In this document: one piece after another, positions 33,561 through 38,956 of the stretch | Layout: each line of letters starts with the position of its first letter | How positions within the stretch are numbered: position 1 is the first letter of the stretch | DNA from: Balneolaceae bacterium | GTDB lineage: Bacteria; Bacteroidota; Rhodothermia; Balneolales; Balneolaceae | DNA length: 64,000 nt | Direction: 5' to 3' | Assembly (NCBI GenBank): GCA_034521755.1 | Contig: JAXHMB010000003.1 | Location: forward strand, 503,878-567,877 | The notes under the pieces: model-generated | What the model saw: only the letters and a program-made list of their open reading frames with translations | Told to the model about the DNA's origin: nothing | Databases searched by the model: none | Made by a program: the position numbers and the translations under genes

Positions 33561-34796
33561 ATGATCACTACTAAAGAATCCATTGCACTTGAAGACAAAT
33601 ACGGCGCTCATAACTATCATCCCCTGCCCGTGGTATTATCCAAAGGCGAAGGTGTTTTTGTTTGGGACCCGGAAGGCAATAAATACTATGATTTTCTGTC
33701 TGCATATTCTGCAGTAAACCAGGGACATGGGCACCCTAAAATTATCAATGCTCTTAAAGAGCAATCAGAAAAATTGACACTTGTGTCTCGTGCTTTTTAC
33801 AGCGATATGCTTGGCGTTTATGAAGAATATATGCACAATTATTTTGGCTACGACAAGCTCCTGCCCATGAATACCGGCGCTGAAGGAGTAGAAACAGCCA
33901 TCAAGTTATGTAGAAAATGGTCGTATGAGAAAAAAGGGCTCACCCCTGAAAAAGCTATGATTGCTGTGGCGAAAGGGAATTTTCATGGAAGGACTACCAG
34001 TATCATTTCTTTTTCTAATGATCCCGTAGCGCGCAAGAATTTTGGACCGTATACTCCGGGATTCATGTCGGTTCCATACAATGATTTACATGCTTTGGAA
34101 GAAGCCCTTAAACACAAAGAGATTGCCGGTTTTTTAGTTGAGCCTATTCAGGGTGAGGCCGGAGTAATAGTACCGGATGATGGATACCTGAAAGAAGCCT
34201 ATGAACTCTGCCAAAAATACAACGCTCTCTTTATTGCTGATGAAATACAAACCGGGATTGCCCGCACCGGCAAACTGCTGTGCGTGGATCATGAAAACGT
34301 GCGTCCTGATATTGTCATTCTGGGAAAAGCTTTATCCGGCGGTGTGTATCCGGTTTCTGCTGTACTGGCTGATGATGAGATCATGGAGTGCATTCGTCCC
34401 GGTGAACACGGTTCAACCTATGGCGGCAATCCCCTGGCTTGTGCTGTAGCCATGGCAGCTTTGGATGTAGTAAAAGAAGAGAAGCTGGCTGAAAATGCTG
34501 AAAAGCTTGGAAAGATCTTTCGTAAAGGAATGGAGAACCTTTCTCAAAAAACAGATCTCATAAAACTGGTACGGGGCAAAGGGCTGCTTAATGCTGTGGT
34601 AATTAACGACAGTCCCGAGAGTAACACTGCCTGGAACATATGTGTACGCCTTAAGGAAAATGGGCTGTTGGCTAAGCCAACACATGGGAATATCATAAGG
34701 TTTGCCCCTCCGCTCGTAATGACAGAAGAACAGCTTAATGAGTGTATCGATATTATTTCTGAAACTGTAATGGAATTTGAAAACGTAACTGTTTAA
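33561..34796 (+). CDS. rocD: Ornithine--oxo-acid aminotransferase
   Basis: 411 aa with '[13 protein letters not shown]', '[18 protein letters not shown]', '[11 protein letters not shown]' and 'LGKALSGG'. Confidence 0.9.
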
Positions 34797-34938: not shown

Positions 34939-34983
34939 GAACCTGCGTCCGCCAGCCGGCGGATATGAGCCCGACGAGCTACC
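34939..34983 (-). repeat. Chimeric tRNA-fMet-derived motif, copy A
   Basis: gaacctgcg + tccgccagccggcgga + tatgagcccgacgagctacc. The 9-nt and 20-nt blocks are identical to the tRNA gene at 37321..37393. Confidence 0.85.
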
Positions 34984-35236
34984 GGTCGTACTTCTTTTCT
35001 ATCAAATCCCAGATAAACTTCCGCCCTTTAGCCGTCTTCAATTGTTTCTCTCTCCTCATTGCTTCAGCTTTCGTTTCGAACTCTTCGGTATGCACAATTT
35101 CCCAGGGCCTGAATTGAATCGTCCATCCTTTCTTTCCAAGTTTGTTATGAGAAAGCATGCGTGCATCCAGATCAGAAGTGAAGCCTACATATATTTTATC
35201 ATAAGAAGGGGAATACAATGCGTAAACAGTAAACAT
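34979..35236 (-). CDS. Small GIY-YIG nuclease-domain protein (YhbQ/URI-like), copy 1
   Basis: 85 aa, 'MFTVYALYSPSYDKIYVGFTSDLDARMLSHN...EAMRREKQLK' (GIY..YIG plus a conserved R/E). The stop codon lies inside the tRNA-derived motif. Confidence 0.8.
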   Translation of the reverse strand: MFTVYALYSPSYDKIYVGFTSDLDARMLSHNKLGKKGWTIQFRPWEIVHTEEFETKAEAMRREKQLKTAKGRKFIWDLIEKKYDR

Positions 35237-35313
35237 AAGCTCAGAATAAAAAAAGGCCTTAGCACCATGCTAAAGCCTTTTGATAGTGGCGGGGGCATCC
35301 CGAGGAATTGGGA

Positions 35314-35358
35314 GAACCTGCGCCAGCCGGACGGCGGATATGAGCCCGACGAGCTACC
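35314..35358 (-). repeat. Chimeric tRNA-fMet-derived motif, copy B (variant middle segment)
   Basis: gaacctgcg + ccagccggacggcgga + tatgagcccgacgagctacc. Confidence 0.8.
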
Positions 35359-35360
35359 GG

Positions 35361-35609
35361 TCATACTTCTTCTATCAAATCCAGACCAAACTTCCGCCCT
35401 TTAGCTGTCTTCAATTGTTCCTCTCTCCTCATTGCTTCAGCTTTCGTTTCGAACTCTTCGGTATGCACAATTTCCCAGGGCCTGAATTGAATCGTCCATC
35501 CTTTCTTTCCAAGTTTGTTATGAGAAAGCATGCGTGCATCCAGGTCAGCGGTGTAACCGACATATATTTTATCATAAGAAGGGGAATATAATGCGTAAAC
35601 AGTAAACAT
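35361..35609 (-). CDS. Small GIY-YIG nuclease-domain protein, copy 2
   Basis: 82 aa, near-identical to copy 1 (VGYTADLD, REEQLK; a different C-terminal tail). Confidence 0.8.
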   Translation of the reverse strand: MFTVYALYSPSYDKIYVGYTADLDARMLSHNKLGKKGWTIQFRPWEIVHTEEFETKAEAMRREEQLKTAKGRKFGLDLIEEV

Positions 35610-35679
35610 AAGCTCAGAATAAAAAAAGGCCTTAGCACCATGCTAAAGCCTTTTGATAGTGGCGGGGGCATCCCGAGGA

Positions 35680-35920
35680 CTCTGTTAGACTTACCATCTA
35701 TTGAGAATGGGGAAAATCTTACCATTTTTAAAATACCAGCCCACCGGAGACAGGCTAACCCGAGGAAGAGAGTTAGACTCTATGTCCCGAATCAGTCCCT
35801 CCGGTTGTTGGTATTACTCAAACCTAAATAGCATTCTAGCTGAAAACTATGAACAGAGTCAGGTCCGGTAATACCGTGCTGGTAATTAAAACATAAACCA
35901 TTGAAAGATGAGAATTATTG
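35680..35920 (+). ncRNA. Candidate IS110 bridge (guide) RNA region in the left non-coding end
   Basis: Contains cccgagga (35758..35765, identical to the left target flank), tcccgaat (35785..35792, reverse complement of the right flank attcggga) and gttagactc (35772..35780, matching the IS left terminus gttagact at 35684..35691). Confidence 0.4.
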
Positions 35921-36944
35921 ATGTCTACGACAAATCTTAGCAATACAAAATACTACGTTGGAATCGATATTTCGAAAGCAACCCTGGATTGCTGGATTCG
36001 ACCGGCCGGGAACCATCTGTGCTGTAAAAACGAACGCCAGTGGATTTGATCAGCTGTTACAATGGATGGGCGATCAAGGCTGCACGGTGGATAACACCGT
36101 TATGTGCATGGAGAACACCGGCATTTATGGAAAACGGTTGTTGGTGGCTCTCACTGAAGCCGGCTGGCCTACTGCGGTTGAGAAAACCACCGTAACCGAT
36201 AAGGTCGGTCCCGAGCACGACCGCAAAGAGGATGAGTTCGATGCGAGTCTTCTCGCTGAGTACGCGGATCGCTTTGCTGACCAACTTCATATAACCACCC
36301 CACCCGAAGAGGCCTTAGACCAGATAAAGCAACTCTATAGCGAGCGACGTCGACTGGTGCGCCAGCGGACAGCGACCAAAACCAAGCAAACCCAGTCGAC
36401 CCAGCAGCCGCATTGCCTACAACTGCTTCGACACGGATGGAACCGGCAGCTGGAGTTCCTGGACAAACAAATTGAGACCTTGGAGTCCCGGATCGCCCAA
36501 ATTATAGAAGCCCACGAGGGGCTTTGTAGCTATTTTACGCTGTTGCAGAGTATTCCTGGTGTAGCTGAAGTAACAGCTTGGTTATGGTTGATTCATTTTT
36601 ATGGGCAACCAAAGCTAAATCCAAAGAAAATTGCCTCTCGATTTGGAGTAGCCCCGCACACTCACGAGTCAGGATCTTCGGTCCGCGGGAAAACCAGATC
36701 GAGTGGTCACGGGGCCTCTGAAATGCGTTCAACCATGACCCTGGCGGCCCGTTCAGCCAGTACGCACTATGATCGTTTTAAAGCCTATAAACAAAAGAAA
36801 CTCGATGAGGGAAAATGTTGGCCTGTTGTACGAAATAATTTGGTAAATAAATTAATCACCATAATGTGTGCCATATGGAACAGCGGCCAGCCATACGATC
36901 CGGATCACACCTCACGATTTGACCGGGAGAAAAAAGCTGCATAA
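35921..36944 (+). pseudogene. IS110-family DEDD transposase, frame shift near codon ~30
   Basis: ATG 35921 gives 'MSTTNLSNTKYYVGIDISKATLDCWIRPAG', then a stop. The remainder, 'TNASGFDQLLQWM...GVAPHTHESGSSVRGKTR..', is in the 35958..36944 frame. Confidence 0.8.
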
Positions 36945-36971
36945 TACTTGCAAAAGTCATAGCATTCGGGA

Positions 36972-37016
36972 GAACCTGCGTCCGCCAGCCGGCGGATATG
37001 AGCCCGACGAGCTACC
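36972..37016 (-). repeat. Chimeric tRNA-fMet-derived motif, copy C
   Basis: Identical to copy A. Confidence 0.85.
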
Positions 37017-37270
37017 GGTCGTACTTCTTTTCTATTAAATCCCAAATAAACCTTCCGCCCTTTAGCCGTCTTTAGTTGCTTCTCTCTGTTCATTGCTTCA
37101 GCTTTCGTTTCGAACTCTTCGGTATGCACAATTTCCCAGGGCCTGAATTGAATCGTCCATCCTTTCTTTCCAAGTTTGTTATGAGAAAGCATGCGTGCAT
37201 CCAGGTCAGAGGTGTAACCGACATATATTTTATCATAAGAAGGGGAATATAATGCGTAAACAGTAAACAT
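37012..37270 (-). pseudogene. Small GIY-YIG nuclease-domain protein, copy 3, with a 1-nt insertion near the 3' end
   Basis: Same N-terminal 70 aa as copy 2. An extra g (ggaaggttta versus ggaagttta) shifts the frame, so the ORF reads through the tRNA-like motif to 36905. Confidence 0.7.
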
Positions 37271-37281
37271 AAGCTCAGAAT

Positions 37282-37312
37282 AAAAAAAGGCCTTAGCACC
37301 ATGCTAAAGCCT
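37282..37312 (-). terminator. Intrinsic terminator directly after tRNA-fMet; copies also sit in units 1 and 2 near 35249..35279 and 35622..35652
   Basis: Minus-strand hairpin ggctttagca-tgg-tgctaaggcc followed by T7. Confidence 0.7.
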
Positions 37313-37320
37313 TTTGATAG

Positions 37321-37393
<73 letters not shown>

Positions 37394-37424
37394 ATATAAA
37401 TTCATTTATTCATCGCGAACATTT

Positions 37425-37457
37425 GAACCTGCGTCCGCCAGCCGGCGGATATGAGCC
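37425..37457 (-). repeat. Solo truncated copy (D) of the chimeric tRNA-derived motif, upstream of the tRNA
   Basis: gaacctgcgtccgccagccggcggatatgagcc lies 32 nt 5' of the tRNA start, with unrelated flanks. Confidence 0.8.
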
Positions 37458-37585
37458 GGATTTCAACATCAAATCAGACCCGCGATGTAAGACTCCAATA
37501 ATAAGGGTTGACATAGGTACTTGTCAATACTAAATTAACTATTCTTTTCTGAACCAATAACAGATTTAAAACCACTCATATCCTT

Positions 37586-38956
37586 ATGGCTATTGATACA
37601 AAGGTCAATCCTCAGCAAGTACATAAAATATTAGATAAACATATTCTTACCGATGGATATGATCTTGTGCTTGATCTTGAAAAAAGTGAAGGAATTTACC
37701 TATATGATTCAAAAAGCGGCAACCGTTACCTCGACTTTTTCACTTTCTTTGCTTCCAATCCTCTTGGGATGAATCATCCGCGCTTGGCTAACGAAGAGTT
37801 TATCCAAAAAATTGGAAAAGCTGCCGTCAACAAGCCTTCAAATTCTGATGTATATACAGAGGCCATGGCTGAATTTGTAGATCACTTTGACCGAGTGGGT
37901 ATTCCTGACTATATGCCCTATTCTTTCTTTGTTTCAGGTGGTGCCCTAGCAGTAGAAAACGCTCTTAAAGTAGCATTTGACTGGAAAGTGCAAAAGAATT
38001 TCCAAAAAGGGTATCGACAGGAAAAAGGTCATAAGGTACTACACTTTGAAAAAGCTTTTCATGGCCGATCGGGTTATACCATGTCACTCACAAACACAAA
38101 GCCGGGCAAAGTAAAATACTTTCCAAAGTTTGACTGGCCGCGTGTGGTAAATCCGGTTATGAAGTACCCGGAAACTAAAGAACACATCCGGCAGGCTGAA
38201 ATGATGGAACAAAAAGCCATAGCTCAAGCTGAACGCTACTTTGAGATGTATAAAGATGATATTGCATGCATCATCATTGAACCTATTCAAGGGGAAGGCG
38301 GCGACAACCATTTCAGGCTTGAATTTCATCAGGCACTTCGGGATTTGGCTGACAAACACGAAGCATTGCTTATTTATGATGAGGTACAAACCGGAGTTGG
38401 GCTGACCGGTAAATTCTGGGCTCATGAACATTATGTAAAACCTGATATTCTGGCCTTCGGTAAAAAAGCACAGGTTTGTGGAATTCTCTCAAATACAAGA
38501 GTGGATGATATTGAAACAAACTGTTTTCATGTTTCTTCAAGGATAAATTCTACGTGGGGCGGCAACCTCGTTGATATGGTCCGCTTTGGACGCATTCTCC
38601 AGGTCATAGAAGAAGAAAACCTGGTAGAAAACGCCGCTTCCGTTGGAGGATATCTGCAAGAAAAAATTATAGCACTCTCTGAAGAATTCGAACATTTCAC
38701 CAATCCTCGAGGAAAAGGACTTTTCTGTGCTATAGACCTGCCCGATGCTCATGCAAGAGATGCTGTAGTTAAAGAATGTTTCAACCATAATCTTATGATC
38801 TTATCTTGTGGAGAACGCAGCATCCGGTTCCGTCCCCCATTGACAGTACAAAAAGATCATATTGATGAAGGCATTGAAATCATCAAGAAAGCCTATAAAA
38901 AAGCCGCCGACAGATGCCCCGTTTTAAAACGAAATGTTGGAGATAACGGACATTAA
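37586..38956 (+). CDS. lat: L-lysine 6-transaminase (class III aminotransferase)
   Basis: 456 aa with 'HILTDGYDLVLDLEKSEG', 'YLDFFTFFASNPLGMNHP', 'DEVQTGVGLTG' and 'AFGKK'. Confidence 0.8.
   Translation: MAIDTKVNPQQVHKILDKHILTDGYDLVLDLEKSEGIYLYDSKSGNRYLDFFTFFASNPLGMNHPRLANEEFIQKIGKAAVNKPSNSDVYTEAMAEFVDHFDRVGIPDYMPYSFFVSGGALAVENALKVAFDWKVQKNFQKGYRQEKGHKVLHFEKAFHGRSGYTMSLTNTKPGKVKYFPKFDWPRVVNPVMKYPETKEHIRQAEMMEQKAIAQAERYFEMYKDDIACIIIEPIQGEGGDNHFRLEFHQALRDLADKHEALLIYDEVQTGVGLTGKFWAHEHYVKPDILAFGKKAQVCGILSNTRVDDIETNCFHVSSRINSTWGGNLVDMVRFGRILQVIEEENLVENAASVGGYLQEKIIALSEEFEHFTNPRGKGLFCAIDLPDAHARDAVVKECFNHNLMILSCGERSIRFRPPLTVQKDHIDEGIEIIKKAYKKAADRCPVLKRNVGDNGH

Follow-up and report, generated by a model that had tools for sequence, protein, structure and literature searches.

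Are the tRNA-like sequences that separate tandem copies of a small nuclease gene in a Balneolaceae bacterium the debris of decaying tRNA genes, or are they an element that is kept for a function? The question arises in a 64,000-nucleotide stretch of contig JAXHMB010000003.1 (GenBank assembly GCA_034521755.1, positions 503,878 to 567,877 of the forward strand), hereafter the window, in which a tRNA-Met gene is followed on the minus strand by three tandem units with a period of 373–375 bp, each consisting of a GIY-YIG open reading frame (ORF), a chimeric tRNA junction and a terminator. A sequence-only reading of the locus had proposed that the junctions are functional elements rather than products of independent decay, and comparison with relatives bears this out: the same patch occurs across Balneolaceae and Bacteroidota, it is the sole insert that a flank-anchored scan met in true pseudo-tRNA contexts, and its stem carries compensatory changes. 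The junctions are copies of a conserved element, a non-functional tRNA-Met in which one arm strand is replaced by a self-contained hairpin. That these patched copies are a selected functional element, their role aside, is strongly supported.

The functional gene of the locus encodes an initiator-type tRNA-Met(CAT) at 37321–37393 (minus strand), called by ARAGORN and matched by Rfam family RF00005 with 66.8 bits (family threshold 29 bits). It shows the initiator-type traits of a GGG/CCC anticodon stem and a mismatch at 1:72, and the cloverleaf is its minimum-free-energy fold (z-score -3.6). The order on the minus strand is a promoter match, an upstream pseudo-tRNA (copy D), a 27-nt spacer, the tRNA-Met, a 14-bp terminator hairpin and the three units, of which C lies nearest to the tRNA and A farthest from it. 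Three plus-strand blocks that had been described as identical between the real tRNA and the junctions do occur exactly: tggcgggggca (11 nt) at 35287, 35660 and 37321; gaacctgcg (9 nt) at 34939, 35314, 36972, 37338 and 37425; and tatgagcccgacgagctacc (20 nt) at 34964, 35339, 36997 and 37357. Adjoining these blocks are hairpin 1, tccgccagccggcgga, at 34948 (copy A), 36981 (copy C) and 37434 (copy D), and hairpin 2, tcccgaggaattggga, at 35298–35313 (copy B). The motifs are absent elsewhere in the window, and a 33-mer motif has three exact copies there against none expected.

Junction A (34939–34983, minus strand; sequence alignment) consists of the 20-nt block, canonical hairpin 1 (34948–34963) and the 9-nt block, and it stops right after GGTTC (the gaacctgcg block), without hairpin 2 and without the 11-nt acceptor block. 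Junction B (35287–35358, minus strand) reads 20-nt block, scrambled hairpin 1 (35323–35338), 9-nt block, hairpin 2 (35298–35313) and 11-nt block; its hairpin 2 has one A·C mismatch on the sense strand, which is G·T on the plus strand. The rearranged middle segment noticed earlier in copy B is indeed hairpin 1 scrambled to ccagccggacggcgga, in which the canonical stem is no longer formed. It looks as if the 5-mer CGGAC had been excised and re-inserted inverted across the loop, and in the minimum-free-energy fold the scrambled sequence can pair with the retained 5' strand of the anticodon stem. Junction C is in two parts, a promoter-proximal one (36964–37016, minus strand) with the 20-nt block, hairpin 1 (36981–36996), the 9-nt block and the first half of hairpin 2 (36964–36971), and a distal one (35660–35679, minus strand) with the second half of hairpin 2 (35671–35679) and the 11-nt acceptor 3' block. 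The two halves are split by an insertion sequence (IS) of the IS110 family; with it removed, hairpin 2 of copy C is restored on the tRNA-sense strand as tcccga-attcc-tcggga, whose 6-bp stem is perfect and whose loop has 5 nt.

The junction with two hairpins quoted by the sequence-only reading is a composite: both hairpins exist, but no uninterrupted junction of the window has both in canonical form. Hairpin 1 (tccgcc-agcc-ggcgga), which it placed at 35287–35358, is exact in copies A, C and D but scrambled in copy B. The pattern that it found repeated in A and C is shared as far as hairpin 1 goes, but A has no hairpin 2 and that of C is interrupted by the IS110 element.

A check of the array for tRNAs and for RNA folding had been suggested. 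ARAGORN reports one tRNA only in the window, at 37321–37393, and in a Rfam scan reported to E<=10 junctions A, B and C and copy D give no RF00005 match. No Rfam family fits the junctions; besides the real tRNA there are only weak sub-threshold small RNA matches, which are driven by the terminator hairpin. Junction RNA folds as separate local hairpins, not as a cloverleaf.

The upstream copy, which had been taken for a truncated solo junction, belongs instead to a separate conserved class of pseudo-tRNAs 5' of the real tRNA. At 37421–37484 (minus strand; sequence alignment) it is made up of CGCGGG (tRNA positions 1–6), a GATTT/AAATC hairpin instead of the D arm, GGCTCATA (30–37), hairpin 1 (37434–37449) and CGCAGGTTCAAAT (48–60). 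The GATTT..AAATC stem, standing in the D-arm place, is a third kind of hairpin in the window. Replacement of the 5' acceptor and D stem by the ORF end, claimed for the pattern as a whole, holds for copies downstream of the tRNA, whereas the upstream copies retain the 5' half.

The window was compared with 80 loci that each carry a GIY-YIG homologue and that together cover Balneolaceae and all major Bacteroidota orders (the genome set; relatives are labelled L with a number, and coordinates are local to each locus). In 67 of the 80, ARAGORN places a tRNA-Met(CAT) on the same strand 5' of the ORF, usually 30–70 nt away; 58 of these genes are initiator-type and nine belong to a second CAT class. 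Most of the remaining loci without an upstream tRNA-Met are cut by a contig end, masked or rearranged. At the end of the ORF stands a partial tRNA copy with positions 38–47 swapped for TCCGCC-NNNN-GGCGGA or a variant of it, and a TCC..GGA hairpin lies at most 90 nt past the stop codon in 68 of the 80 loci, with about six more that are variant, truncated or interrupted. The motif is clearly neither confined to the window nor unlinked to GIY-YIG genes elsewhere. The borders of the patch are always CATA/TCC and GGA/C, which is exactly 37/38 and 47/48. Aligned to the local tRNA, the stop-codon region scores 40–104, against 11–18 for most control stretches, and the stop codon itself is often the TAG of the D loop. 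A TAG stop in the former D loop had also been described for the window, where it is found in the intact copy A, whereas copy B stops at TGA 35361–35363 and copy C reads through.

Each copy matches the local tRNA in its T arm and acceptor 3' strand and even in its terminator; that the repeats are identical to the tRNA of their own locus implies concerted evolution. Copies in one locus usually share the same hairpin loop, and the loops differ from locus to locus. All patched copies share the orientation of the tRNA. Upstream patched copies, present in about a third of the loci, consist of positions 1–37, the hairpin and positions 48–~60, followed by the tRNA leader, with the hairpin ~54–70 nt before the tRNA start; the class of copy D is also seen in L031, L037, L043, L051, L055, L056, L060, L077 and others. 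The layout that these loci show is an optional upstream copy (1–37, hairpin, 48–~60), a leader, the tRNA-Met, a terminator, and at least one unit of GIY-YIG ORF, positions ~18/30–37, hairpin, positions 48–76 and terminator. Dispersal of the kind known from repetitive extragenic palindromes (REP) or miniature inverted-repeat transposable elements (MITE) is not observed, as nearly all copies in related loci stand in a tRNA-Met context.

Other arms of the tRNA can be patched as well. In Cyclobacterium a second TCCGCC..GGCGGA hairpin occupies the D-arm place. A second patch in the T loop reads TCCCGA..TCGGGA after GGTTC in the window and in L021, L031, L065, L074 and L078, and TCCGCC..GGCGGA after GGTTCGAGT in L058, L091 and L099; such second T-loop patches recur in distant lineages. 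The exception to the patch is a set of four non-functional, 5'-truncated copies with wild-type 38–47.

The largest array seen lies in the Mucilaginibacter sp. McL0603 chromosome (L056, 2040–5200), with five 92-nt upstream units, the real tRNA and eight 373-nt GIY-YIG units. ARAGORN calls the L056 junctions tRNA-SeC(TCA), an annotation trap. About five 99-nt upstream units stand in tandem in L077, and L099, L072 and L012 hold further arrays. Two loci (L169, 5150–5340; L148, 2985–3390) have an ORF-less form consisting of tRNA, terminator, a segment running from TAGCTCG through the hairpin to positions 48–76, and a second terminator. The left boundary of this form equals that of the ORF-containing loci, and it may represent either precise loss of the ORF or a state that preceded its arrival.

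Evidence that the hairpin is under selection comes from metagenomes and from covariation. A flank-anchored metagenome scan (GGGCTCATA-N14-16-CGYAGGTTC), in which only the tRNA flanks are fixed and the insert is free, returned 138 matches, 103 of them with a TCC...GGA hairpin; the other 35 are chance matches in coding sequence or a real tRNA with a long variable loop. In true pseudo-tRNA contexts, represented by the 103 matches, the hairpin is the only insert. A second patch type among the non-hairpin inserts was considered and rejected, these being chance matches inside conserved coding sequences. Over 44 distinct 16-nt inserts, 98.1% of stem cells are paired, compared with 30–51% in slid controls, and there are 32 double-change cells; none of 500 shuffles came as high. 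The outer three pairs, TCC/GGA, are nearly invariant and the inner three covary, while the loop measures 2–5 nt. The variants include GTC/GAC, ACC/GGT, GGC/GCC, GCT/AGC and CGA/TCG, the last being the type of the window's hairpin 2, found here at the 38–47 position. Where the flanks have decayed, the hairpin is retained (L076 at 4843, L038 at 4933, L062 at 78).

Judged from these alignments, the covariation together with the near-invariant outer pairs therefore gives strong support to selection on the pairing itself and on the closing TCC/GGA sequence. We also considered a duplex palindrome bound by a dimeric protein and rejected it as the main explanation, as the distance between the arms is not fixed (2 to 5 nt) and there is covariation at the inner positions; loop length variation and covariation favour a folded hairpin over such a site. 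A tally over 110 distinct hairpin variants gave seven G·U pairs on the sense strand against four A·C mismatches, a difference that is not significant and does not tell the folding strand, or RNA from DNA, apart. A hairpin with a covarying stem is thus constant in the non-functional tRNA-Met copies around these genes, and it abolishes tRNA folding. We regard this descriptive account, comprising the patched tRNA-Met copies, their layout, the hairpin and its inheritance, as close to certain.

The inheritance of the locus is old and mainly vertical. In Balneolaceae the cassette always adjoins the ornithine aminotransferase and L-lysine 6-transaminase genes, and der is a conserved neighbour in 26 Bacteroidota loci. 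Clades of the GIY-YIG protein follow genera and families. A survey of conserved neighbours in 81 loci found only housekeeping genes and no recombinase, and a search of 2.9 million viral contigs gave neither a protein relative nor the motif. Taken together, synteny, clades that follow taxa, and the lack of a recombinase or a viral match therefore point to an old element that is vertically inherited within families. In one locus (L155, 4800–5260) a GIY-YIG ORF with an initiator-type patched pseudo-tRNA stands behind tRNA-Arg(CCT), not tRNA-Met, which shows that ORF and patched copy can relocate as a unit.

The four copies with wild-type 38–47 are found in L064, L044, L116 and L142, where the tRNA 5' of the ORF is a 5'-truncated copy (~30–76) preceded by foreign DNA. 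In L064 (2750–2915) and L044 (1–135) the foreign DNA, which carries repeated ggtacaNaataggtacaNa motifs, abuts tRNA position ~30, and L116 and L142 have the same boundary. These four boundaries are probably ends of integrative elements that use the tRNA-Met anticodon loop as attachment site.

The protein encoded beside these copies is very small. Copy A (34979–35236, minus strand) is the only intact ORF of the three window units, with 85 amino acids (aa), the TAG stop described above and a match to PF01541 (E=5.5e-16). According to ORF calls and alignment, copy B (35361–35609, minus strand) has a 2-nt deletion that shifts the frame to the TGA stop, and copy C (36905–37270, minus strand) has a +1 frameshift near its 3' end and continues through the junction. 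No record identical to the copy A protein or to the neighbouring aminotransferase turned up in exact-match look-ups. Homologues of 82–88 aa occur in Gracilimonas, Balneola, other Balneolaceae and all major Bacteroidota orders; the wider family comprises 1,536 clusters at 50% identity (E<=1e-10). In the homologue alignment the catalytic positions are kept, with Y5, Y16, G18, R26 and H30 invariant and E63 nearly so. A structure model of copy A (predicted local distance difference test, pLDDT, 89.8) shows that the whole protein is a GIY-YIG catalytic domain, and 85 aa leave no room for a separate DNA-binding domain.

No NCBIfam model fits this subfamily. The closest solved relatives, in sequence and in fold, are the UPF0213 proteins BH0048 and EF2693 and the Slx1 nuclease domain. 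A profile search against PDB sequences gave 1ywl (3.9e-7), 1zg2 (2.6e-6) and Slx1 (7wme, 5e-4), the best matches in sequence or fold are 1zg2, 1ywl, 6seh and 7cq4, and the top 11 Foldseek matches are all UPF0213 or Slx1, with I-TevI and UvrC more distant. By sequence and modelled fold, the predicted nuclease belongs to the GIY-YIG superfamily and is closest to Slx1/UPF0213.

What might a hairpin in a dead tRNA do beside such a gene? It would form in single-stranded DNA (or RNA), and it may be a structural handle for the minimal Slx1/UPF0213-type GIY-YIG nuclease, that is, a putative site of binding or cleavage. Nicking or cleavage at the hairpins would stimulate exchange between the flanking tRNA-derived repeats. 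Such exchange would homogenise the repeats with the real tRNA, would produce tandem arrays such as the three units of the window, and would keep the nuclease gene tied to the essential tRNA gene, while the patch would also abolish tRNA folding of the extra copies. Concerted evolution, arrays with and without ORFs, breakpoints and insertions in loops, and the persistence of an active nuclease at a fixed locus would all be accounted for. We offer this mechanistic part, a nuclease handle that drives local recombination and array formation, tentatively and in the knowledge that it may well be wrong. It is possible, though rather doubtful, that hairpin and minimal nuclease together form a hitherto unrecognised structure-guided recombination module at tRNA-Met genes of Bacteroidota, Balneolota and Rhodothermota lineages, in which the hairpin-tagged pseudo-tRNAs would be the substrates of the nuclease. 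Cleavage would then be the driving force behind concerted evolution, changes in copy number and the retention of the cassette.

Breakpoints in or next to hairpin loops count in favour of a link to recombination. The case in the window is the 1,284-bp IS110-family element (35680–36963, plus strand; Pfam) in the loop of hairpin 2 of junction C. It matches PF01548 (5e-17) and PF02371 (9.6e-14), the DEDD transposase N-terminal domain and Transposase_20, and scores 134.5 bits against NF033542, slightly below the cut-off of 140, in keeping with the frameshift that splits its transposase into ORFs 35918–36049 and 35958–36944. The element is present in a single copy in the window, without a target duplication, and a plasmid search with it gave no match. 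Elsewhere, L061 (3290–3360) has a 42-nt insert in the loop of hairpin 1, in L033 (3270–3290) hairpin 1 is truncated within the loop, and truncations are also seen in L117 and L070. The L061 insert, the L033 truncation and the IS element of the window suggest that hairpin loops are hot spots for breaks or insertions.

Several points weigh against a nuclease acting at these hairpins. Among 19 metagenome loci with patched pseudo-tRNAs and at least 1.2 kb of flank on both sides, eight have no GIY-YIG ORF nearby, and six of these eight adjoin a real tRNA-Met; a nuclease gene at the same site is therefore not needed for the hairpin to persist, though the genome may hold one elsewhere. A stem of 6 bp does not extrude from a DNA duplex, so that phases of single-strandedness would be required. 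The balance of seven sense G·U to four A·C identifies neither the folding strand nor DNA as against RNA. A factor other than the nuclease could recognise the near-invariant TCC/GGA, and the arrays could arise by ordinary unequal crossing-over without a nuclease.

An alternative is that the patch confers immunity or inactivation. Positions 38–47 would then be the recognition or cleavage site of the nuclease, or of anticodon-arm integrases, and the spare copies would be patched so that they stay uncut, the nuclease gene is not deleted and no secondary attachment site arises. Consistent with such a site, the replaced segment is common to both host tRNA classes (CATAACCC(G/T)(A/G)AGGTC), its borders never vary, 103 of 103 in-context copies of the anchored scan are patched, and integrative elements do use this anticodon loop in L064, L044, L116 and L142. 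Yet any sequence would confer immunity, and what is kept is a covarying hairpin with invariant TCC/GGA that replaces D-arm and T-loop segments too. An 85-aa catalytic domain of the Slx1/UPF0213 kind is, moreover, unlikely to read a 10-bp sequence alone. The suggestion that the window's junctions are a nuclease-resistant version of the target is weakened further by the wild-type 38–47 segment, which adjoins an intact nuclease gene in every real tRNA and in the four 5'-truncated copies. We consider this explanation unlikely.

The patched copies might instead act at the RNA level, being transcribed with the tRNA as a 5' leader and forming the 3' untranslated region of the nuclease mRNA, where they would set tRNA maturation and mRNA stability; the hairpins would prevent tRNA folding or mispairing, block RNase P/Z and exonucleases, or bind an RNA-binding factor. 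The position of the promoter match fits this arrangement. A consensus scan finds a strong sigma-70-like match, a promoter-like site (TTGACA-18-TATTAT, 11/12 matches), at 37498–37527 (minus strand), 5' of the upstream pseudo-tRNA, which probably drives the whole unit, and between terminator and ORF there is no space for a promoter. The tRNA 5' start CGCGGG follows 13 nt past the -10 hexamer, and in relatives the spacing from the -10 element to the tRNA start is nearly the same (~12 nt). With what is left of a tRNA 5' end following the promoter match, transcription seems to run through ~100 nt of pseudo-tRNA leader before it reaches the real tRNA. An intrinsic-terminator hairpin with a T run lies 3' of the tRNA at 37285–37315 (minus strand; consensus scan) and has identical copies at 35624–35654, after junction C, and at 35251–35281, after junction B. 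Hairpins 1 and 2 are themselves no intrinsic terminators, as the scan finds them without a T run; its only calls are the 14-bp hairpins that follow the acceptor block and, within the IS element, two weak sites.

The shared orientation of every copy with the tRNA, the covariation with some sense-strand G·U pairs, and the local folding of junction RNA that is not recognised as tRNA are likewise as expected of an RNA element. Against this, the variants have almost as many A·C mismatches, which would do harm in RNA, as G·U pairs (4 vs 7), a purely structural RNA role leaves the invariant TCC/GGA unexplained, and the loops are where DNA breakpoints cluster. Neither junction A, with a fold z-score of 0.18, nor the upstream copy, with -0.72, is remarkable in its folding, and no Rfam family matches. 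A function in RNA is in our judgement improbable, although both the recombination site and the RNA signal that had been suggested for the patched copies are possible.

It is very improbable that the copies are neutral relics, remnants of old duplications or attachment sites that lack a function of their own and stay alike only through tandem amplification and conversion by the real tRNA gene: the tRNA-derived blocks do track the local tRNA and carry occasional stem-breaking changes, the anticodon of a copy is often changed (CTT, CCT), frameshifts occur in some ORF copies and integrase-type partial tRNA copies exist at this tRNA, but the reading is strongly disfavoured by compensatory stem substitutions with 98% pairing across phyla, by a hairpin that outlasts the decay of its flanks, by the lack of a recombinase as conserved neighbour, and by the expectation that gene conversion should often erase a neutral patch when the only spare copies with wild-type 38–47 are four 5'-truncated ones beside apparently integrated DNA.

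Returning to the proposal of a nuclease handle, the nearest known system is SegB, a free-standing GIY-YIG homing endonuclease in the tRNA cluster of T-even phages, which was reported in 2026 to drive tandem amplification of a tRNA-plus-segB unit through microhomology between tRNA and ORF (PMC13096335). In both systems a GIY-YIG nuclease gene directly adjoins tRNA genes, the tandem unit consists of a tRNA (or part of one) and the nuclease gene, and the junction joins tRNA sequence to the 3' end of the ORF, truncating its C-terminus (PMC13096335). Hairpin-patched pseudo-tRNAs, in contrast, are not described for SegB. SegB, which is phage-borne and horizontally mobile, has the full length of a homing endonuclease (~220 aa) and includes a DNA-binding part, whereas the window protein is an 85-aa catalytic domain only; its gene is chromosomal and keeps its synteny within families, and the search of viral contigs did not find it. 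Traits of homing endonucleases of the SegB/I-TevI type are accordingly lacking: no sequence-specific DNA-binding domain is joined to the 85 aa, all of which are catalytic, and the distribution is not patchy, mobile or phage-borne, with one relocated cassette (L155).

Slx1 and the UPF0213 (YhbQ-like) proteins are the best matches in sequence and fold. Slx1 cuts branched and stem-loop DNA in a structure-specific manner, and by analogy a hairpin would be a fitting substrate; the present system differs in that neither an Slx4 partner nor a RING domain is found here. We found no link of UPF0213/Slx1-type nucleases to tRNA genes or conserved hairpins in the open literature. In fungal mitochondria, mobile GIY-YIG ORFs of the Allomyces atp6 type duplicate the 3' end of their host gene and move between species. 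They resemble the present locus in that the ORF lies at the 3' end of an essential gene, with the intact gene 5' and a displaced partial 3' copy beyond the ORF, and they differ in that the host gene encodes a protein and the displaced copy decays without a conserved hairpin patch.

Partial tRNA duplications also arise by another route. Integrases at tRNA attachment sites reportedly (Williams, in 2002) make such duplications at anticodon-loop and T-loop sublocations. The present repeats resemble these as direct repeats of the tRNA 3' part from ~30, with patches at the two classical crossover arms, and the four related loci described above have foreign DNA abutting position ~30. They are unlike integrase duplications in having no integrase and no island between repeats, units of ~375 bp, and repeats that are patched rather than exact. 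Among the conserved neighbours of the 81 loci no recombinase was found, and the repeats lie 375 bp apart. To our knowledge, integrases do not produce upstream 5'-type tRNA copies. A nuclease gene resident beside tRNA genes with tRNA-derived repeats is of a known kind, and the new conserved part is the hairpin-patched pseudo-tRNA. We did not find the architecture of a GIY-YIG gene with patched tRNA-Met copies described in the open literature, most subscription journals lying outside the search.

In the window the cassette is flanked by genes for ornithine-oxo-acid transaminase and L-lysine 6-transaminase, at 33561–34796 and 37586–38956. The order of the two transaminase genes relative to the tRNA in the window and in L021 differs from that in other Balneolaceae, which indicates a local rearrangement around the cassette in these two. 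A large share of contigs terminate in or beside these arrays, and in about 20 of the 80 genome loci no more than 320 nt lie between the start of the matched ORF and a contig end; the repeats therefore commonly break short-read assemblies. Some records are N-masked at the tRNA.

Small UPF0213-type GIY-YIG proteins are very common, as the 1,536 clusters indicate, and one large subfamily is now tied to tRNA-Met genes and to a covarying nucleic-acid element, so that a defined substrate is now at hand for testing. In a major bacterial phylum, dead tRNA copies that look engineered routinely flank the initiator tRNA locus; they break assemblies and can be mis-called, as by ARAGORN in L056. If the nuclease does act on the hairpins, the locus would parallel, on a chromosome, the tRNA amplification that SegB drives and would be a vertically inherited counterpart of homing, and it would provide the first cellular role for the UPF0213 class of nucleases.

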